Assembly: GCA_951406725.2 (NCBI GenBank)
Contig: OX597817.1
Location: 13,082,001 to 13,146,000 of the forward strand
Reading direction: 5' to 3'
Length of the DNA stretch: 64,000 nt
Source of the DNA: Octopus vulgaris
Taxonomy: Eukaryota
The position numbers and the translations under genes were made by a program. The notes beneath the pieces are model-generated. The model did no database searches. It saw only the letters and a program-made list of their open reading frames with translations, and was not told the origin of the DNA. Positions 32,000-46,900 of this stretch are shown piece after piece. Each line of letters starts with the position of its first letter. Position 1 is the first letter of the stretch.

Positions 32000-34900
32000 G
32001 GTGGGTTTCTTTCAGTTTCCATCTACCAAATCCACTCACAAGGCTTTGATTGGCCTGAGGCTTTAGTAGAAGGTGCCATGCAGTGGGACTGAACCTGGAA
32101 CCATGTAGTTGGGAAGCAAGCTTCTTACCACGCAGCCACTCCATTATTTACATACATGTTCAAAGAAACATAATTGCTCTTCCTGCATTAATTGACCATT
32201 GTCTTAGGTACCTAGCTACCCTTCTAAACTCACCTGTGCTCAGCCTTTCTTATGAATTAATATTCTATGGCCCCGAGATTGTACTAAGTTCATTCCACTC
32301 CACTTACAGCAAATCTTGCAGGCTCATTGCCCATGTTTTACTATCATATAGCATCATAAATTACGCTTCTTTCCCTTCAGTCTTACCCAGAGTACTTTCA
32401 CTAGAAGCATCCTCATCATTGTTCGACCGTGATCGAGACTTTCATAGTCTTTTCAAATGGCTAATAATGTGTGCGCGCGCCACTACTACACACATTGGAA
32501 AGCATTGTACAACCAAGTACTAAAGAAGATCTTTCCTCCTCCATGAAACAAAGCTGTTCCCGCTGGACGTCAGCCCAGTATTTCTAAGCTACGGACCGAG
32601 TGATTTATTGTAAGGTTATCTCCCTAGATAGATTGCCTTCACTACGGCTAAGGAGCCCTTTCTACCCCAGATGATGTATCTCTAGATACAGCATTTGAGT
32701 AGAAGAAATGATCTATTTCCAATTAATTATTTAAATAGTCCATGGGTCCCATTCCATTAGCTGTGTCCAGTGCATCAGAAGAAACTGAACTAAACTGGTC
32801 AATTGTCAGTCTGACATTGCATACACTAGATCAGTGGTTCCCAAACCGTGCACCGCAAGATGTAATTAGGTGCACCTCGAAAAAGTAAGATTATATTTCA
32901 AAATATGAAAAATACACACTGAAATGCACTAAAAAGTTCATATATAAATGTCAAAGTGTCAAAAAACTAAATGGAGGGAAGTACTTCGTCGGTTACGACG
33001 ATGAGGGTTCCAGTTGATCCGAATCAACAGAACAGCCTGCTCGTGAAATTAACGTGTAAGTGGCTGAGCACTTCACAGACACGTGTACTCTTAACGTAGT
33101 TCTCGGGGATATTCAGCGTGACACAGAGATTGACAAGGCCAGCCCCTTGAAATACAGGTACAACAGAAACAGGAAGTAAGAGTGAGAGAAAGTTGTGGTG
33201 AAAGAGTACAGCAGGGATCACCACCATCCCCTGTCGGAGCCTCGTGGAGCTTTTAGGTGTTTTTGCTCAATAAACACTCACAATGCCCGGTCTGGGAATC
33301 GAAACCGCGATCCTATGACCGCGAGTCCGCTGCCCTAACCACTGGGCCATTGCGCCTCCACCAAAAAAATAAATACTAAACTAAACTAAGAATGAGAGGT
33401 GGTTGTGTCATTCAATTTATTTAGGCTAATTATGGTATGACAATGTTATTCAATTTTGAATTTGAAATTTCATAAGGATAAGAACTAAATTAGCATCAAA
33501 CTATCCTAGAAATTGGTACACCACTATCATCATCGTGTAACGTCCGCTTTCCATGCTAGCATGGGTTGGACGATTTGACTGAGGTCTGGCGAACCAGATG
33601 GCTGCACCAGACTCCAATCTGATCTGGCAGAGTTTCTACAGCTGGATGCCCTTCCTAACGCCAACCACTCCGAGAGTGTAGTGGGTGCTTTTACATGCCA
33701 CCGGCACCAGGGCCAGTCAGGCGGTACTGGCAATGGCCACGCTCAAATGGTGCTTTTTATGTGCCACTTGCACAGGTGGCACATATGTTTCAGTTTATTT
33801 CAGTTGTAGCTTCAGCAGTTTTCATTTCAATAATAAATATGAAAAATAAACTATTGAACATCGTTAATATATGACATTGAACTAAATCTTTTAATATGTC
33901 CTCATGTATTGGGGGCTGTGTTTCAATCTTTTTTCATTTACATAGTGGCAAGAATTTTCATCTTTTCAATTAATTTTGAAAGACTTCTCAAAAGAGTCCG
34001 ATAATATATGACACTGCCACTTTTCACAGCTCACTGGTCACTTGTCTCAGTCTCAGTTTGATTCTGTTAGTAATCTGTGCTCTTTGTCTGAGACAATTCA
34101 TATTAACTCTTTTGTTACTAACCCGGTCAAAACCAGCTCTGGCTCTGTGGTAAAATATCTTGTTTTCATAAGTTTTGAATTAAAATCTTCCACCAAACTT
34201 TAGTCACAATTTATGTTCCTAACACTAGCTTAAAGATGACTAAGTTATTTTACTAAATTCTTTGTTGTATTTAAAATGATTGAAAGAAACACAGAACATC
34301 TCAATAGAAATACAGTAATGAAAGGGTTAACAGACTAAATTACCCATAAAATAGAAAAATTTATTAAGAGGAAACATAACCATGACAATTATGAATCTGA
34401 AAGTGAACGTTTGTTCGTTAAAAGCAACTAAGCGTAGTTATAATAATGCAAAAGTTCAACCCAATCGTTAATATTGCAATAGCTATTTAAAGTTGGGGTT
34501 TCATTGGACTGGCAATGAAGATCAACCTCTTCTACTGTATGTTGTTTGTGGTGAAAAGATGTCTAATAAAGGAATGTTGCCCAGCAAATTGAAAAGACAT
34601 TTTACAACTAAACATTCGCATCTTCAATGTAAAGATCTGAATTATTTTCAAAGACTACTAGAACAGCAATCTAAACAAAGAAACTATCTTGGAAAAAGGA
34701 TGAATGCATCTGAAAAGGCTCAAGTCGAGTTTATTGAGATAGACAAAATTATTGCACTACAAACGAAATTGCATACTTTAGCCAAGTCAATTATTTTACC
34801 TGCTTGTAGAAAGATGGTTAAAACCATGGTAGGTGATGAAGCCAAGCAAGAAATAAGCAAGAGTCTGCTCTCAAATAATACAATCCATAGGAGAATTATG

Positions 34901-37900
34901 GATTTATCTCTCGATATAGAGGAAAATGTAGAGAACAAACTTCAGAACTCAGAATTTGCTCTACAGGTTGACAAATCAACTGATATTAGCAACAAAGCAC
35001 AATTACTTACATTTATTCACTTTATTGATGGTAAACAAATCATAAATCAGTTCTCTTTTTGTGAAGAAATGCCACTCACTACAAAAGGTATTTTTATCAT
35101 TTTATCTGCCAACCTTGAAAAATTGAATTTATCCTGGAATTCTACATTGGGATATATACTGATAGAGCACCATCTATGGTAGGCTCTATTAAAGGTTTTG
35201 TATCCCTTGTACAACAGCAAAATCCTAATGTTATATGTATTCATTGCTTCCTACATAGGGAGGTACTAGTTTCAAAAACAATACCAGTTGAGTTAAAGCA
35301 ATTATTAAACCAAGTTGTTGAAATAGTTATTCATATTAAAAGTAGTCCATTGAAATGTTGCTTATTTGAACAAATTTGTATTGATATGGACTCCCAGCAC
35401 AAGCGCTTACTTTTACACACAAAAGTCAGATGGCTCTCAAAATGTAAGGTGCTACGTTGCATACATGAATTCCAGAAGGAATTGCATGCATTTTTTAAAG
35501 AAGAAAAACATGAAGGCTTCTTGGAATATCTACAAAGTGAATTTTGGATTTCCAAGCTGGAATATTTAACAGAGATATTTGCACAACTTAATAGCGTCAA
35601 CACAAGTATACAAGGTAGAGATAAAAACATTCTCACTTCAACAAACAAGCTGGTTTCATATAAAAATAAAGTTATAATTTGGAATAATAGAGCTGAAAGT
35701 GATAACTTCAAAATGTTTCCCTTAATGCATAAAAGAAATGACTCCTATTGCATTTGAACATCTGACAAATCTGGAAGAAAAAAAAATTTTTCTTTTTTGT
35801 CATTGAACACAGAAGAGTATGATTGAGTTTTAAATCTTTTCATAAAAATTCCATTTTAATATTGGTCTGAAAATATGTGAAGAAGAGGAATTGGCATCTA
35901 TATCCAATGATCAAGAATGGTGAGTTAACTACTGATACATTTTGAATTGCTGTTATGGAAGAAAACTCCTCAGTAGCAAAAAAGCTTTATCAAAATCATA
36001 ATCTATCAACATCAATGGAATTTGTAGCTGTGATACCAGTGCCGGTGGCACGTAAGAGAACCATCCAAACGTGGCCGTAGCCAGCGCCGCCCGACTGGCC
36101 TCCGTGCCTGTGGTACGTAAAAAGCACCATCCGACCATGGCCGTTGCCAGCCTCGTCTGGTCCCCATGCTGGTGGCGCGTAAAAAGCACCATCCGATCGT
36201 GGCCGTTTGCCAGCCTCGTCTGGCACCTGTGCCGGTGGCATGAAAAAAGCACCCACTACACTCATGGAGTGGTTGGCATTAGGAAGGGCATCCAGCTGTA
36301 GAAACACTGCCAGATCAGACTGTGTCTGGTGCAGCCTTCTGGCTTCCCAGACCCCAGTCGAACCGTCCAACCCATGCCAGCATGGAAAGCGAACGTTAAA
36401 TGATGATGATGATGATGATGATGATGCAGTTTTCCACATCGTATTTATATGAGTTGGGATTTTCAGCCTTCAATAACATCAAATCCAAAACATGAGAGAG
36501 GCTCTGTTGCATCAAAGAAGAAATGAGGGTTTGTCTTTCTGAAATATGCCCTAATATTGAAAATATTTCCCAAAACTGTCAAGCGCATGTTTCTTATTGA
36601 TAACTTCACTTCATATATTGAATAAAGAGTAAGTACATGCAAATTTTCTGTATTTTTAATTATCTATATATTACCTTATAGTTTATACTTAGTTAATATA
36701 TATATAAAACCCCATCTGAATAAATTTTAGAATTTATGTACAAAGAAAGCCAAAATATTTTGACTTCTTGAAAGGTGTGCCATGAGTAAAAAAAAAGTTT
36801 AGGAACCACTGCACTAGATAAACAGCATTAAGTTCCTTCTGCCTTGCTTCCAATTGATTAACAATTTTGAAGATAGCCCTGATCAACTTTTAAACCTTTT
36901 CTGTAGATATTCTTTTATAGATTCTGTAATGAAACTTAGATCATCAAGAAATAAAATTTCCTACAGATATTTAACCCTAAACTCCTGGCCATGAGTGCCA
37001 GCATTATTACTATAGCCATAGCCAGTATCGCATCGACTGGCCTCTGTGCTGAGGGCACATAACAAACACCATCCGAGTGTGGCCGTTCGCCAGCCTTGTC
37101 TGGCACATGTGTCGGTGGCACATAAAAACACCATCCGAGCGTGGCCGTCTGCCAGCCTCGCCTGGCACCTGTGTCGGTGGCACATAAAATCACCCACTAC
37201 ACTCTCGGAGTGGTTGGCGTTAGGAAGGGCATCCAGCTGTAGAAACACTGCCAGATCTGACTGGCCTGGTGCAGCCTTCGAGCTTGCCAGACCCCAGTTG
37301 AACTGTCCAACCCATGCTAGCATGGAAAGCGGACGTTAAACGATGATGATGATGATGTATTGTGATCCTTGGTAAAGCCTATTTTCGGCTACCAAGTTAA
37401 TATTAGGTACTACTTCTACTTGATGGTTAGGAAGTTGAAGTATGTCTATGTATCATAAAATCACTCTGCACAAAATGCTGATGTCTAAATTTCCCAACTT
37501 TGCAGGCATAAAAAAAAATGCATGTGAAACAGAAAAACATTTCATAGTAGATTCATAAATTTATGAAAATATAATCTTATATGCGTACAATTGTCCTTGT
37601 AACTCTATTATCACAGATTCCAGTTGACATCTTTCTCGAATTCCATCCGATTCCATAGACCGTAGCGTCTCAACATGCTTTTCATACTGCTTATGAATTT
37701 CATGAAGTTGGTCCTCTCTTAACCGAACAAGTTCTTCAAAGTATCCCTGCAAAGAACAATAAAATGTGGATAAAAAACAACTCTATCTTCATTAGTTTTA
37801 AATTTTTGTAATCTCAGTTAATAAACTAATATAGTTTGAAATTACAATTGATTTTTCTTTTTTGTCAAAGTTACTAAGCTTTTTTGATAGAGAGTAACAA

Positions 37901-40900
37901 AAGACAAAATTAGACCTGGCAGAAATTGAAACCAGAAACTTGGAGCATGAATCTAGATTCTACAACCAATAACCTCTAATACTTCTTGTTTATTCTCTTT
38001 ATTCTCTCTTCTAACCTCACTTCCCTGAGGCTAACAAATATATATATTAAACAAACAGGATCAAGTAGATCAAGGCAGATCAGGTAACTAGGAGGCACCT
38101 GCATCATTTTGGCAAAGCAGGTTACTCAGAAAAATTCCAGATAATTCAACAGGTCAATTTAGCAGTCCATACAGAGTTAGACAGGTGTTCACTGGTCCCA
38201 AGTATCTTGCAAAGGATAATTGATACATATTACATAGTGCAATATTTAGTAAACAAAATCGAATGTACAGTTTAAAACATCACTACATGCATTTCAGTAG
38301 CATGGTTTGATTCAAATACAAGTTCATTACATAATAGGTTAACATTATGTAAATTCATATTTTTACATACTTGCCATCTCATCAGATGATATTCTCCCAA
38401 GTATTTTACCATGAATTAAACCATGCTAGTGAAATGTGTGCAGTGATGTTTTCAACTATACATTCATTTTTGTTTACTATATCTATCTATGGCAGGTAAA
38501 ATTACCAAGATCCAAAGTGGTCTTTGTCCCTCATCATTGCTGCCATATCCTGTGTCTCCCAGAGACCAGTGTCTGTCCTTGGGGCATCAACATATGTCAT
38601 CTTCAGTCTCCCTCTTCTAGTATGTTCATGTAGGGGCTCCACAGGAGCATAGAGTGCAGTATCAACTCTGAATGATGGTGAGCATGTCCAGCTAACCGCA
38701 GTCTCCTCTGTCTTATATTTGAGTTATGCCTTTCAGAAGAACATTAGTTTCTATTTCATGATTTCTTTATCATCAATTATATATCAAAGTATTTACCTTC
38801 TGTTCATGGATTATCTTGTAGTTAGCTTCCAGCTTATAGTATTTCATTCGCCATGAATCTTCATTCAAGTTTTCAGCATTCAAAAGACTGCTACTACTAT
38901 TAGAATTAGTGAAGTCCCTTAAGTCTGCTTCAATACTCTCTGAACTACAAAAAGAGAAAGAAAAAAAATACAGTAAATATCAATTTTTGACACTGGCACA
39001 AGACCACAAATTAGTCAATTAACCCAGACCCAATACTTAATTGGTACTTATTTTATGGACCCTGGAAGGCTGAATGGTAAAATGATTTTCAGTAGAATTT
39101 GAACAGAGGACATCATTTTGTCTGACACTCTAACACTTCAGCAGATATTAAAGTAAAGATGAAAAGGGCTAACAAAATACCTATTTCTTTACTACCCACA
39201 AGGGGCTAAACACAGAGAGGACAAACAAGGGGAGACACACAGATTAAGTCGATTATATCGACCCCAGTGCGTAACTGGTACTTATTTAATCGACTCCAAA
39301 AGGATGAAAGGCAAAGTCAACCTCGGCGGAATTTAAACTCACAACGTAACGGCAGTCGAAATACGGCTATGCATTTCGCCCGGCGTGCTAACGTTTCTGC
39401 CAGCTCGCCACCATCCTTACCACACCACCCTCTCTGTGTTTCAGTACTCCTGCTTCCATTTCTCTTCTTTCTTATCATACCACTCCTTACCAATAATCGT
39501 CATGTAACTCTGTTCCATCATATTGTTCCTATCACTCAGTTTTTTTTTTTTCTTATTCCTCTCAGTGGCATAGCATGGGTTTTAGCCACTCTATACAGCA
39601 GCCATGTTGGTTGTCCCCTTCCTTAAACATAACATACCCTTGACAACAGCAAACACATGTCTGTAAAATAGCTGCCCCATGTAGTTCACACACCCAGCAC
39701 ATCCCACACTGTGTCACTGGTTTCTTTCTCTCTCTCATTCTTTTTCCTAATTCTCTCATTCGTGTGGCTTCAATCCAACCTCCTAATCAACAACCATCAT
39801 GTAGCTGTTTGTATCTCTCTTTCTCTTTCATCTTCTATCAACCTCTTGCTCTTATCACTCTGGTTTTTTTTCTTTTACTTTTCTGTCACTTTCTTACTCT
39901 GGTTCTCTTCTCGCCCAGTTGTGTGAGAAAGGGATGAATTAAGAGAGACAATATGAGGGGATTCTCTTTAGTCTTGCTGGCGGTGTAAAACATCTGCTCT
40001 GGTGCTGTTGAAGGAACAGAGATAACATGGGGCAAAAAGGTATCTTTAGATTTGGATTACTCTGTAAGTAGTCACTGTAAAGGGACTGGTAAGAGGAAGA
40101 GAATCTAGACATAGAAACCACACTAAAGATGGAATGTGTGAGAAAGATGTGGCCCCTAATCCATTGATAACTCCAAATAAGGACTGATGTGAACCATAAT
40201 GATCTGCCAAGACCATAATAATAATAATAATAATGAAATTATTGTATACAGTGCTCAGGTGCACCACAACTTGTCAGAAAGTGCATATAAAGTACATGCA
40301 GTAATGTAGAAATGTCTGGAAAGTGAACATGCTTGTGTGTGTATGGAGGGGAGAAAATCAAGTGTAGTGTTGGCGAATCTCAGGAAGCATGGAAGTCTTG
40401 AAGGATGCAGTGCTCCGACAACCATAGACTTGTGGTATGAAATGGTGATGATGATGATGAAGATAATAATGATGACTATCACACAAACACAAATGGATGT
40501 TAATTTATTGTTGGTTGGTTAGCTTGCAAGAATTTATGATTAAAGGAATTGTAAATCAACTAATGCTGTAGAAGCAAAATTATTCCTAATTTTGACTTAA
40601 CCCTGTAAAATTTCCTTTCTAGAACAGTCCCTAAATTCAAACATTAAGGTTTTGCTATATTTTTTTCTAGATAAATGTGAAGGTGGGTTACACAACTAGT
40701 AATAAGATAAATGGTATTTCGTGTATTGTTAAAAAACATTAACAAGAAAAGCAAAACGGAGATAAAAGTTTTACCTAGAAAAATATTGTAAATATGGAGT
40801 GTAGTCAACAGCAATTGGGCCAAGTAATTCAATGTTCTCTCCTTTCAAACAAAAGCTGAAAAAAACAAAGACAAAAAAAAAACACGTTTTTATATGTGTG

Positions 40901-43900
40901 AGCTCTTTTCAAGAATTACCTGAAAATATAATTTCATAATAGCATGTATCAGCCCCTCTCTTTAGCAAAGTTTTTCACTCACTTTCTCAAGATTTCTTCA
41001 AGCCCTCACTTACTCTTTCTTATCTTTTCTTTTTAATGGTTTCTGAACACACATACACACACACATTGCATCAAATTTTGTATTACAAGCAGGAGTGGCT
41101 GTGTGGTAAGTAGCTTGCTAGCCGACCACATGGTTCCGGGTTCAGTCCCACTGCATGGCATCTTGGGCAAGTGTCTTCTGCTATAGCCCCGGGCCGACCA
41201 ATGCCTTGTGAGTGGATTTGGTAGACGGAAACTGAAAGAAGCCTGTCGTATATATGTTTATATATATGTGTGTGTATGTGTGTGTTTGTCCCCCTAGCAT
41301 TGCTTGACAACCGATGCTGGTGTGTTTACGTCCCCGTCACTTAGCGGTTCGGCAAAAGAAACCGATAGAATAAGTACTGGGCTTACAAAGAATAAGTCCC
41401 GGGGTCGATTTGCTCGACTAAAAGCGGTGCTCTAGCATGGCCGCAGTCAAATGACTGAAACAAGTAAAAAAAGAGATAAAAAAAAAAAATATGTAAGTGT
41501 ATGGCATTGTTTAGGTTCACACACAACTTTTTAAAAATTACACCAATGATTAAGAAATAATTTTGTCTCCCTTCACACCAAATTGGATTTTCTTTGTCAT
41601 TATGGGAAAGTCAGTGTGATTTGAGGATTTAATTTTAGGTGCAAATTCAACTTGAAAAAAAAAAAAAAAGCATTGTATAGTGAACCAAAAATATTAAAAA
41701 CAAAAAAAATAATTATATACATTCTTGATATTGGATGCTTTTGTTAATAAAACTGTGAATAGAAAAACTACAGAAGTGAAACAATGACCATTGAAAATAT
41801 AAAAACAAAAAAATCTGATCAAAATCTGTTTACATGTGTAAACGTTTTTTTTTTTTTTTCTTGATGGATTCAGTCATTGGACTACAGCCATTGAAGAGCC
41901 TTATTGCCTTCAAAGATTGTCTAGAAAGACAACTGTGTTGACCACAGTATTGTTTCAGTCTGACATTTATTTTATTACGGAGATGTACTCGCATAGCAAG
42001 TGATTTGATCTGAGATCGTGTGCTGAAACGAAAACAATTGCAGCATGGAAGGTGTTTGTAAGCCATTTAAGAAACACACAAAACCATTAGATTCACTTCA
42101 ACATTTAAATTTAATTTGTCAAAATATTTTCATCACTAAAATCCGCGACCTGTTCACTGACAAAAATCCATGCTGCATCACGGATTTTCGTCAGTGAGCA
42201 GGTCGCGGATTTTAGCGACGAAAATATTTTGACAAATTAAACTTAAATGTTGAAGTGAATCCAACGGCTTTTGTGTGTTTCTTAAATGGCTTACAAACAC
42301 CTTCCACGCTGCAATTGATTTATTTTATTGATGTCCATTTATCAACTAGTTATGCTACCTTTTCAAGTAAGGGATGTAACTTGGTACACTGGTTTACACC
42401 AGTATACACAAACACTTTAAATATATGTGTGTATAATGGGCTTTCACATAGTTCATTCTGTTATAGGTACAAGGCTTAAAATATTGGTGGGAAGGTACTA
42501 GTCAATTACTTCAACCCCAGTGCTCAACTAGTGCACATTTTATCGACCCTGAAAGGAGGGAATGCAAACTTGATCCCGGCAGAATATGAACTCAGAACAT
42601 AAAGCTGAAAGTAATGTCACTAAACATTTTGCCCAGCATGGTAACAACCCTGCCAGCTTGCTTTACATGGTTACCATTCAGAAAGCATTGGACAACCGAT
42701 GGCAAAACTAAGCAATATTTACCTAACTTGTTGCATATTTAAAAAAAAAGGAACATAGGCGCAGGAGTGACTGTGTGGTAAGTAGCTTGCTTACAAACCA
42801 CATGGTTCCGGGTTCAGTTCCACTGCGTGGTACCTTGGGCAAGTGTCTTCTACTATACCCTCAGGCCAACCAAAGCCTTGTGAGTGGATTTGGTAGACGG
42901 AAACTGAAAGAAGCCTGTCGTATATATGTACATATATATATATATGTATGTGTGTGTGTTTGTGTGTCTGTGTTTGTCCCTCTAGCATTGCTTGACAACC
43001 GATGCTGGTGTGTGTTTACGTCCCCGTCACTTAGCAGTTCGGCAAAACAGACCGATAGAATAAGTACTGGGCTTACAAAATGAATAAGTCCCGGGGTCGA
43101 GTTGCTCGATTAAAGGCAGTGCTCCAGCATGGCTGCAGTCAAATGAGTGAAACAAGTAAAAGAGTAATAGTTTTGAAGTAAAATTCTTAATTATACAGCT
43201 GATATGTATTATTAACCATTTTACCTTCATTTTTCCATGCTTGTATGGATTGAACGAATATGTTATTTGAGGCAATGTTTTACAACCTGATTCCCATCTT
43301 GATTACAACTCTTACCTGGGTTTTTTTTTTTTTAGTAAGGACTCACTTATTCCACAGAGTTTTGAAGGCATAAACTGCCAAGATGATTTGTTGAGAGAAA
43401 AAATTTGACAACACTGTTTGCTATACTTTTGTACAAGTGATTGAAGATGTAATCATACACACATACATACACACACACATACAACATGGTCTTTCAGTTT
43501 CTGTCTACCAAATTCACTCACAAGGCATTAGCTGGCCAAAGGCTATAGTAAATGTCACTTGTGTAAGGTATTGAGCAATAGGACTGAACCTGAAACTACA
43601 CAGTTGGAATGTGAATTTCTCAACCACACAGCTATGCAAGAACTATACCAACACAGTGTACTACAATAACCATCAATAAAATACGAAATAGCTTTGTCAA
43701 GTAACACAATTCACACAACACCATATCAATACAGTTAGAATAGTTTCAAGTGATTGTACAAAGGTTCGTTATTTACATCAGAGCCAGCATAATTTACACA
43801 GTCACAGTTTTAAAGAAATTTTAAAGAAAAATGGATTGAAAAATAATACTTTGAGTATTTTACAATATCAGATGTCAGTTAACAGTGGGAGGAAGAAATT

Positions 43901-46900
43901 TCAAACTTAAGACTTCAATCAGTGACAACTGAAAAGAGGACCTAACACAGACACACAGACATGCATTGTATGTAAATCCTATCTTTTATTTCTTCATTTC
44001 TTTTATACAAACAACCTGTTTTATTTACAAGACTATGAATATAATTCAATGAACTTCCAAATACTTTTTATTGAAGAGAAAAAGACATATAGTTTATACA
44101 TGATTTTATATACAATTTCCAGAGGTCAATACTTCATGTCTAATTTCTGAGAAAATATATTGATTTATTGAGACAATTGTTTTTGTAATGGTTAGATCAA
44201 CAAACCTGAAGTCAATGGCATTCATTCCAAGTAAGGTATCACACAGCATTTTTGCATCATCAGACAACATAACAGCACCTTCTTGATAGAAGTTCCTGAA
44301 ATGAAAACCACATCGATCTATTAATGAGAGGTAAATTATAAATAACTATATTAATTATAACTTGAATAACAATTTGTGATAAATATGGTTTTAACCCTTT
44401 AGTATTTAAACCGGCCATATCCGGCCAAAATAGTTAATCTGTTTTATGTTCAAACTGACCAGATCCAGGCTCTTGCACCTACCCTACAATGTTATTCTAC
44501 ATTAAGCAATTACACCATCGAGATCTTGGAGATATGAGATAATGCATGATTAATTCAAATCAATGGGAATCAATAAGCATTACGTTTGATAGAATAATCT
44601 GAACACTAAAGGGTTAATCCAGCACATGATAAAATTTACAAACTGAAACTGCTTGATTTAAAATATTTATTCTGTTACTTGAAAAAGCAAAATAGCTTTT
44701 GACTACCTTTACTTGTGAGTAAGCTCTGAGGGCAAAACTGACTCAAAATTCATATGCTATGTTCTAACCAATCACTTAGATTTAAATAACATTTCAGAAA
44801 CTCATTTAAAAACTATGCATTATTACATAATGACATTATAGAGTGATTACTTCTGTGAAATAAAACCTCCACAAATGTGTTTAGAAAGATGCGCTTTAAT
44901 GATTTTAGAAAACAAATCAATTAATCATTGTCATCATCATCATCACTATTGTCGCCATCATTATCATTTAACATCCATTTTCGATGTTGGCAAAGGTTGG
45001 ATTTTTGAGAGGATCTGATAAGCTGGAGGCCTGTGTTGAGCTCCATGGTTTCTATGGCTGGATGCCTTCCCTATTGCCAGTTGCTTTACAGAGTGTACAA
45101 AGTGCTTTTTTCCATGACAGCAGCACTAGTGAGTTTTCTTTGTCTTGCAATTGCAAGACAAAGAAAAAGAGGAAAAAATCCCCCTCAACTTAGTGGAGTG
45201 GTAGTGGAGGTGAGGTTGTTTTATACCAGGTGTTGAGATGCTAAAGTATGATAGAGGGGCAGGTAAAGATGCCCTACTACAACCTCATATTATATATGAA
45301 TAGGTGGGAGTAAGTGGAAAGAAGATAAAAATGTTGGTGATGAGGTGTCAGATTGTACTCTCAGGGTACCACAAGGTGAATCATCATCATCATCATCATC
45401 ATCATTTAGCGTCCGCTTTCCATGCTAGCATGGGTTGGACGGTTCAACAGGGGTCTGGGAAGCCAGAAGGCTGCACCACTCCAGTCTGATCTGGCAGTGT
45501 TTCTACGGCTGGATGCCCTTCCTAACGCCAACCACTCCGTGAGTGTAGTGGGTGCTTTTTACGTGCCACTGGCACAGGTGCCAGGCGGAGCTGGCAAACG
45601 GCCACGAACGGATGGTGCTTTTTACGTGCCACGATCGGATGGTGCTTTTTACGTGCCACGATCGGATGGTGCTTTTACGTGCCACCGGCACGGGGGCCAG
45701 GCGTTACGAGGGCCAGGTGAATATACAAGAATATACAAGAAAATATGAACTGAGTATGGGGAGGTATGGGTGCATAAGTTAATAGTAGTGTGATGAGGGC
45801 AATAGGAGGTTAGAGTTAGAGGTTGAGTTTAATGCCAAACACTAACAATCAAAGCAGGGATATGGATACATCTTTCTAGGGGTCTATAACTTTAGTGCTA
45901 ACCATTAGCAACACACTACAGGCCGAGGTAACATAAAATAGACAGCCTAACTAGTTAGCTGCTTCGAGGTTCTGAAGTTAGATCACATCAAGATTAATTT
46001 GGCCTTTCAGAGATGATAAAATAAGTAATAAAGATATATAGTTATGATCATGAGACCGACCGATGTTGCTACACATCGCTGGTCACAATGCGTTCACATT
46101 GTTTTAGCCTTTGAATGACGCCACCCCGCTGGCTAAGCGAGCAGGCCAACAGACGAAAGAGTGAGAGAAAGAGTGGTGAAAGAGTACAGCAGGGATCACC
46201 ACCCCCTGCCGGAGCATCGTGGAGCTTTTAGGTGTTTTTGCTCAATAAACACACACAACGCCCGGTCTGGGATCGAAACCGCGATCCTACGACCGCGAGT
46301 CCGCTACCCTCACCACTGGGCCATTGCGCCTCCATGATATATAGTTATGTACATTGCAATATCTGACTTACCACACCTAAAAAAATATTCATACTAAATG
46401 AAAATTTTTTTAAAAACCCTGATATATGCAACAAATAAACCAATTAAGACTGTAATTAACTATCATGAAAATTTGTAATTAAAAAATTATAAATGATAAT
46501 TTTCTGATACAAAAACTTACTTTGTTATCCTAGTTTGCTTCAGAGCTTCAGATAGATATTCAGATAATCTCTTTTCCATCAGTACAACTCTTAACCAAGC
46601 TTGTCCCTTGGAATGAAGAGGAAAAATTGAATTAGAATAATGTGTAACATTTTCTAAGATTTTGAAATATGATTAAATTAAAATAAGGAATTTAGCATAT
46701 CAAAACCATTTTTGAAAAAAAAAAAAAAATATTTAACAAAAGTTTTGGCTGTGTGGTAAGTAGCTTGTTTACCAACCACATGGTTCCAGGTTCATTACCA
46801 CTGCATGGCACCTTAGGCAAGTGTCTTCTACTATGGCTGACCAAAGCCTTGTGAATGGATTTGGTAGACAGAAACTGAAAGAAGCCCGTCGTATATATAT

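Follow-up and report, generated by a model that had tools for sequence, protein, structure and literature searches.

Hammerhead ribozymes within Penelope-like elements (PLEs), and inverted, tailed insertions of these retroelements, are already known. The minimal hammerheads surveyed by Cervera and De la Pena 2014 (PMC4209133) lie in the pLTRs and combine a short helix I, an unpaired nucleotide that separates position 9 from 10.1, a G10.1-C11.1 pair, a palindromic 15.2-16.2/loop 3 region and a frequent U17; they also occur as pairs on opposite strands, 100-700 bp apart, and in the accessible part of that survey their 3-8 pairs are C3-G8 and U3-A8 only. Canonical EN+ PLEs, among them Neptune (PMC8557442, Craig et al. 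2021), are described with a C-terminal GIY-YIG domain, a CX2-5CxxC linker, inverted 5'-truncated pLTRs, a one-sided tail of 30-40 nt and a (TA)n bias. For Poseidon PAc of Anolis, reverse transcription is reported to start at two internal 5'-ORF sites that define a tail of 30-40 nt, with both strands cut and extended, an ATT preference, a predicted protein dimer and an uncut RNA template; the accessible text states the completion of PLE integration and the origin of inverted pLTRs as unvalidated (PMC11167929, Frangieh et al. 2024). Also comparable are L1 twin priming, where two strands primed on poly(A) yield an inversion and an untemplated 5' G, attributed to cap copying in L1 and SVA, marks the capped end (PMC4859970), and animal non-LTR retrozymes, which are non-coding, PLE-derived tandem direct repeats with a type I hammerhead per unit (bioRxiv 10.64898/2026.07.22.740005).

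The locus analysed here lies in a 64-kb stretch (the window, G000:C4:13082001-13146000) of the 2.8-Gb octopus genome. Its family, designated family A, is like the PLE minimal hammerheads of PMC4209133 in the structural features and pLTR location listed above, but carries G3-C8 and a 5-bp stem II, and three 3-8 pairings coexist among sister families of this one genome. With the canonical EN+ PLEs of PMC8557442 it shares the C-terminal GIY-YIG domain, the linker, the inverted truncated pLTR, the one-sided tail and the (TA)n bias, whereas its tail, at 58-59 nt, exceeds both theirs and that of Poseidon PAc, and the copy in the window is minimal (341 bp) and flanked by a clean 12-bp duplication. 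The route of insertion considered below would resemble that of PAc in its two internal start sites in the 5' ORF, strand cutting and extension, ATT preference, protein dimer and uncut template. In PAc, by comparison, C3G/G8C is a laboratory mutant and the ORF starts inside the hammerhead, whereas in family A G3-C8 is natural and 92 nt separate G3 from the ATG downstream; cap run-off stubs, as proposed for family A, and the strict pairing of long with short arms seen there are not described in the accessible text on PAc (PMC11167929). Two primed strands and an untemplated G recall L1 twin priming, but family A does without poly(A) priming and both its primers would start at fixed internal sites, so that the two arms cover nearly the same stretch and make up a palindrome. 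The window element resembles retrozymes in being non-coding, PLE-derived and furnished with a type I hammerhead motif, but unlike their tandem direct repeats it is an inverted pair.

The original prediction described a palindrome at 42035-42317 with two divergent hammerhead-type motifs, and arms and cores were both located as described. The inner arms (42080-42175/42176-42271) are 90% complementary and the outer ones (42026-42083/42269-42326) 93%. Comparison with 30 close copies of 95-100% identity (327 candidates, 40 scored) extended these bounds: the right end at 42317 stands, whereas the left end is at 41977, the minus-strand arm carrying a 58-nt tail. The full element thus spans 341 bp (41977-42317) and is flanked by 12-bp target-site duplications at 41965-41976, whose last 3 nt (ATT) match the element end too, and at 42318-42329. 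The minus-strand unit had been thought to continue to about 41930, past an AATAAA; family contigs have loose ends at 41974, family coverage begins at about the same position, and the AATAAA sits in the left target duplication, leaving the element without a poly(A) signal of its own. The long arm (41977-42179, minus strand, 203 nt) starts at the hotspot of 5' ends, which precedes the core G3 by 21 nt, then includes the hammerhead and the ORF start (ATG at 42064-42066, minus strand, MAYKHL...) and stops at the end of the one-sided tail (41977-42034, minus strand), equivalent to roughly codons 12-30 in the PLE ORF. The short arm (42180-42317, plus strand, 138 nt) is without tail and ends at the short 3' site, ~32 nt inside the ORF that opens with the ATG at 42286-42288 (plus strand). 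Both arms meet at a centre junction (42172-42183) with 1-nt microhomology, the long arm reaching 8 nt farther toward the RNA 5' end than the short one. Contigs of three organism labels cross the flank into the element by less than 31 nt and were not counted as bridging, and no empty-site joint was found among the joints listed. A>G differences in contigs match family variants and were set aside as a sign of editing.

A minus-strand exon with a RUN domain (PF02759, E 2e-4, 21.9 bits at a cut-off of 22 in a direct Pfam scan) has its GT donor near 44205, and an AG acceptor comes next near 40855; the 341-bp element between them is therefore intronic, in an intron of approximate bounds 40856-44205 on the minus strand. 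The proposed placement in a RUNDC3 intron holds for an intron of a minus-strand RUN-domain gene; from peptide motifs we take the host gene to be putatively RUNDC3-like. The window was absent from the listing of a whole-genome RUN-domain search, and a PDB sequence search returned weak RUN matches only (E 0.58). The minus strand of 42035-42317 is predicted to form a single hairpin of -223.7 kcal/mol (z -33.9; 0/200 shuffles as stable). As had been proposed, the long-arm motif on the minus strand is in sense orientation within the host pre-mRNA, where the predicted -224 kcal/mol hairpin would compete with it. The window insertion itself is ordinary and probably inert, since the long hairpin would bury the one copy that the host pre-mRNA holds in sense.

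Read outward from the centre, each arm comprises stem I, GUGANCA, an unpaired G, a 5-bp stem II, GAAA, AUAU, UU and the closing strand of stem I. The right minimal type I motif (42190-42233, plus strand) has the core GUGAGCA with G3 at 42194 and a predicted cut at 42229/42230; stem I lies at 42190-42193, the core occupies 42194-42200, the unpaired G is at 42201 and stem II at 42202-42206/42215-42219, followed by GAAA (42220-42223), AUAU and UU (42228-42229), which yield a palindromic AAUAUU and U17. Its counterpart on the left (42118-42161, minus strand) has the core GUGAACA, G3 at 42157 and a predicted cut at 42122/42121. In isolated 52-mers the minimum free energy fold forms stems I and II. 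An unpaired base before 10.1, G10.1-C11.1 and a palindromic helix III region are all present, the extra unpaired G being a known feature of PLE minimal hammerheads (PMC4209133). Across 80 arms, G3 is found in 76 and C8 in 78, so that the motif departs from the canonical sequence of the core (C3 U G A N G8 A9) and keeps a Watson-Crick 3-8 pair with the rest of the core intact. Rfam returned no hammerhead match even at E<=10, in line with the expectation that canonical models miss this core; its hairpin-type microRNA matches fell below the gathering score and were dismissed as generic. A loose core pattern gives 14 overlapping matches in the window, a number reached by 8/100 shuffles and thus not above chance. 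A descriptor with both stems, by comparison, gives 257 matches in 2.2 Mb of fetched loci, a set enriched for family A by design, and 0 in one block-shuffled control.

The G.U pairs in stem II of the left arm, taken as covariation, arise from two C-to-T changes at CpG sites; at the stem II CpGs of 80 arms, C-to-T changes that keep the pair number 9 and 6, and changes that break it 7 and 6. With pair-keeping and pair-breaking changes about equally common, these G.U pairs reflect CpG decay. The family copies decay neutrally, and the G.U pairs are no evidence for a hammerhead. Nor do the two motifs form a dimer in cis, being on opposite strands with one sense copy per transcript, and the gain in helix III from dimer pairing is -0.2 kcal/mol, almost nothing. 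Among subfamilies of family A, loop II varies and core and stems are constant. One older copy (L146, minus strand, 4599) has C at position 17 and another loop II and keeps the G3-C8 core.

The palindrome is almost certainly an inverted pair of pLTR stubs of a young, high-copy autonomous Penelope-like retroelement. A GIY-YIG ORF upstream of the arm in one copy (L023/L031) gave the first link, and a protein search with this ORF recovered many 97%-identical copies. The arm lies ~950 nt past the stop codon in 30/30 loci with the C-terminus of the RT/GIY-YIG ORF. At one locus (L077) 3' UTR, pLTR, hammerhead and tail are continuous into the ORF, in a tandem pLTR-ORF arrangement with the ATG inside the arm; at another (L076) the 3' part of the hammerhead and the tail continue into the ORF. 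A third (L065) holds an open frame with the RT motif YVDD and a GIY-YIG domain (PF01541) above the Pfam cut-off, the Pfam scan of this frame giving no RT match. Six of ten long ORF loci are themselves inverted pairs on the kilobase scale, with one 203-nt and one ~146-nt arm end. Genome-wide, the 35-nt core of the arm has 1,936 exact occurrences (control, 0) and the adjoining 19-mer 11,073 matches. A PLE origin with an adjacent RT/GIY-YIG ORF, as anticipated, is thereby borne out. The alternative anticipated at the same time, a retrozyme-like non-autonomous element, does not fit the direct link to an RT-GIY-YIG ORF, and tandem direct hammerhead units were found in none of the copies examined. 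The linker that joins RT to EN reads CX3CxxC in family A and in a sister family C, and CX4CxxC in a second sister, family B. Since Nematis also has a linker motif, CX2-5CxxC does not fix the clade; CX3CxxC together with (TA)n targets would be compatible with the Neptune clade. Searched against the PDB, the ORF of family B returned no match.

Opening the descriptor to all 16 pairs at positions 3 and 8 divides the 257 matches in the fetched loci into 213 GC, 40 CG, 2 UA and two single-copy mutants, and no family-level core with an unpaired 3-8 position occurs among these matches. Family B has C3-G8 (3,329 matches genome-wide; 55% protein identity to family A), and family C has U3-A8 (2,440 matches; 53% protein identity to family A). 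In families A, B and C and in a further stub type (L112), the motif lies shortly upstream of the homologous ORF start with differing stems. Sister families with C3-G8 and U3-A8 at the homologous site support the hammerhead reading of the family A motif: in two families the bases at 3 and 8 have changed jointly without loss of Watson-Crick pairing. This between-family comparison covers about five families, with selection acting on source elements and not on copies. In family B, position 9 is C in 97 and A in 3 of the first 100 of 3,329 matches; cores in this PLE clade can therefore drift from the catalytic consensus, to judge from the matches listed. Many near-identical open frames of 1,310-1,312 aa with pLTRs on both sides (L149, G000:C17:6330000-6338000) mark family B as a candidate active element, as far as its sequence indicates. 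Family C (L152:5890, L319-L343) consists mostly of short stubs with the same extra-G 5' end as family A. Two more stub types have canonical CUGAUGA minimal hammerheads (L112, minus strand, near 743; L139:3128; L167), of which the L112 type has a GUCA/UGAC stem I in common with family A.

U3-A8 hammerheads are natural (PMC3088659, PMC4209133), and G3-C8 appears in the accessible parts of the literature searched as a laboratory variant only (PMC11167929, PMC3884650). No natural G3-C8 core was found in that literature, outside of which lie the PLE variants of Lunse et al. and supplement file 1 of PMC4209133, which could list it. G3-C8 would therefore appear to be a new core variant, and its thousands of copies would be the natural form of the laboratory double mutant found in print. 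As canonical descriptors and Rfam miss the G3-C8 core, hammerhead counts in animal genomes may be low.

We lean towards the view that the G3-C8 motif is catalytically competent in the parent element, each copy likely being a weak ribozyme that would be assisted by protein or dimer. In the anole PLE, C3G/G8C partly restores cleavage and the protein is required for it (PMC11167929). A possible, if less probable, reading is a PLE stub with a vestigial hammerhead, whose fold would be maintained, without cutting, for a role in the promoter, in protein binding or in connection with RT. This reading agrees with the copies, which show no pile-up at the predicted cut: one of 101 arms on contig C1 starts there, explained by stem I microhomology, and genome-wide there is no excess (19 vs 7, p 0.35) with microhomology joints set aside, the value being p 0.011 when the 18 such joints are kept, in counts made by hand on the first 100 of 108 matches. 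It agrees further with the tolerance of A9C in family B, and with the accessible reports that catalytic mutants of the anole PLE insert normally, that no RNA-seq reads of that element end at the cut (PMC11167929) and that minimal hammerheads cut poorly in vitro (PMC4209133). On the other side, a vestigial fold does not account for the joint change of positions 3 and 8 in two families with Watson-Crick pairing retained, at a pair that matters in the active conformation (PMC3088659, PMC3884650), and a cleaved RNA might just not serve as a template. A9C in family B, the negligible helix III dimer energy and the missing cut-site pile-up together raise doubt about the activity of these cores. De la Pena and Flores are said to have found in 2001 that, in the hammerhead of a viroid, a G inserted after A9 has a harmful effect. 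Sister families with C3-G8, U3-A8 and A9C offer a ready panel on whether PLE hammerheads must cut. Two copies (L291, L298) have short tandem duplications starting exactly at the predicted cut.

The ends of the stubs were mapped on the first 101 arms of contig C1. Their 3' ends form two clusters near +125 and +185 from G3, about 58-60 nt apart, and all 18 inverted pairs in this set join one long and one short arm (18/18, chance 3.5e-6). At the other side, the 5' ends of 40/101 arms fall at -27 to -20 from G3, only 6/101 extend at least 14 nt upstream beyond this peak, and 55/101 end downstream of -20, many of them being the second arm at a palindrome centre. Not all of these 55 are independent, seven having one junction in common and two others one flank. 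Arms ending at A-22 are preceded by G in 15 of 22 cases, where long copies have C or T; genome-wide, 1,039 copies have G and 163 have A before A-22, short copies being counted for G and A only, and 804 copies extend at least 6 nt upstream. The extra G is without template in several copies (e.g. L249, L259, L268), in which it belongs to neither target duplication nor inverted arm; in 11/30 copies the inverted arm is lengthened by it as well, and for some of the rest the target duplication may be its source. Among 30 copies with the extra G the letters upstream are unshared. By eye, family C shows the same extra G in 4/25 copies, and family B has a 5' cluster of its own ~65 nt upstream. At 42201-42205 of the window, ~30 nt downstream of the inferred start of family A, lies GGTCG, which we take to be DPE-like, and in family B a presumably YY1-like AAAATGGC sits ~55 nt upstream of the core, close to the 5' cluster. 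The centre junction is identical in seven palindromic copies (L171, L174, L217, L218, L222, L223, L227), suggesting that they were amplified as a unit or as part of another repeat.

We judge it probable that the 5' peak represents run-off from the capped 5' end of the RNA, a process expected to place 5' ends 20-27 nt before the core and to add an untemplated G. A pLTR promoter would start a capped transcript ~22 nt upstream of the core, whose hammerhead would stay uncut in template RNAs. The PLE protein, probably a dimer, would nick both strands 12 nt apart in AT-rich DNA, one nick priming distally, at the tail end, and the other proximally, with both sites inside the initial 30 codons of the ORF. 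Synthesis of the two cDNAs would end by run-off ~145 and ~205 nt on, at the 5' end or close to it, as with a strong-stop product, and the cap would often be copied into an extra G. Their 3' ends would be joined by microhomology, and the two arms could stem from two RNA molecules. The whole explanation, two short inverted pLTR copies reverse-transcribed from two internal sites and joined, with a G3-C8 motif, we regard as likely. A more far-reaching version is put forward only tentatively: the stubs may be frozen intermediates of PLE integration by a dimeric two-RNA RNP, with two strands primed from fixed internal sites, cap run-off like a strong-stop product, and joining, in which a working natural G3-C8 hammerhead would have come from repeated 3-8 flips among sister retroelements. 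Concrete predictions on PLE integration follow from the strict pairing of long with short arms, from the extra G and from the mixed arms, and family B, with many intact 1,312-aa frames, is usable to test them.

Mixed arms bear on the number of templates. Among 34 inverted pairs found, 30 could be typed by loop II (4 untyped), in a sample chosen in part for the young type; in 3/30 the two arms differ in their multi-base loop II type, and two more mixed pairs were seen by eye (L195, L197). We give about an even chance to the reading that mixed arms point to two RNA templates; they could also be the product of later gene conversion. The same loop type in both arms of the remaining 27/30 pairs agrees with another account, on which a single cDNA folding back on itself, or ordinary twin priming on a single RNA, gave rise to the palindrome and the 5' peak is a splice acceptor or a stall of reverse transcription at the hammerhead base. 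This account is unlikely as a whole, the mixed arms being unexplained by fold-back of one cDNA, but it draws on a good 3' splice-site consensus (branch point, pyrimidine tract, AG) that ends exactly at the 5' peak. It also has a parallel in D. virilis, where an intron ends at helix I (PMC4209133) and helix I lies at least 46 nt downstream of the element start (PMC2377424). Against it, short copies retain the AG that splicing would remove, the extra G is absent from the template, and in family C (U3-A8), where no pyrimidine tract precedes the peak, the ends follow the same pattern. A shared upstream exon was ruled out by 30 copies without common upstream sequence. Contigs of four sequencing runs, in which the stretch is covered without a known donor, show no splice joint, which speaks neither for nor against splicing. 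An ordinary foldback or TIR MITE-type DNA transposon with a chance hammerhead-like motif, set out beforehand as the outcome that would overturn the PLE reading, would suit a short, palindromic, high-copy sequence with target duplication but is highly improbable given asymmetric ends in 18/18 pairs, variable centres, many copies that are single arms, and an arm that is the pLTR of an RT-GIY-YIG element, the ORF link refuting it.

Other repeats were encountered around family A copies. Near 40826900 of another contig (L073/L049, G000:C25), a family A element has inserted immediately at the short 3' end of a pLTR that belongs to family B. In the window, the element is bracketed by a common SINE-like repeat, present at 41089-41469 and 42761-43161 in two ~90% alike copies spaced ~1.7 kb apart, and on the plus strand at 34472-35757 two overlapping frames of 236 and 212 aa were found, which we take to be akin to a broken hAT/ZBED-type transposase.
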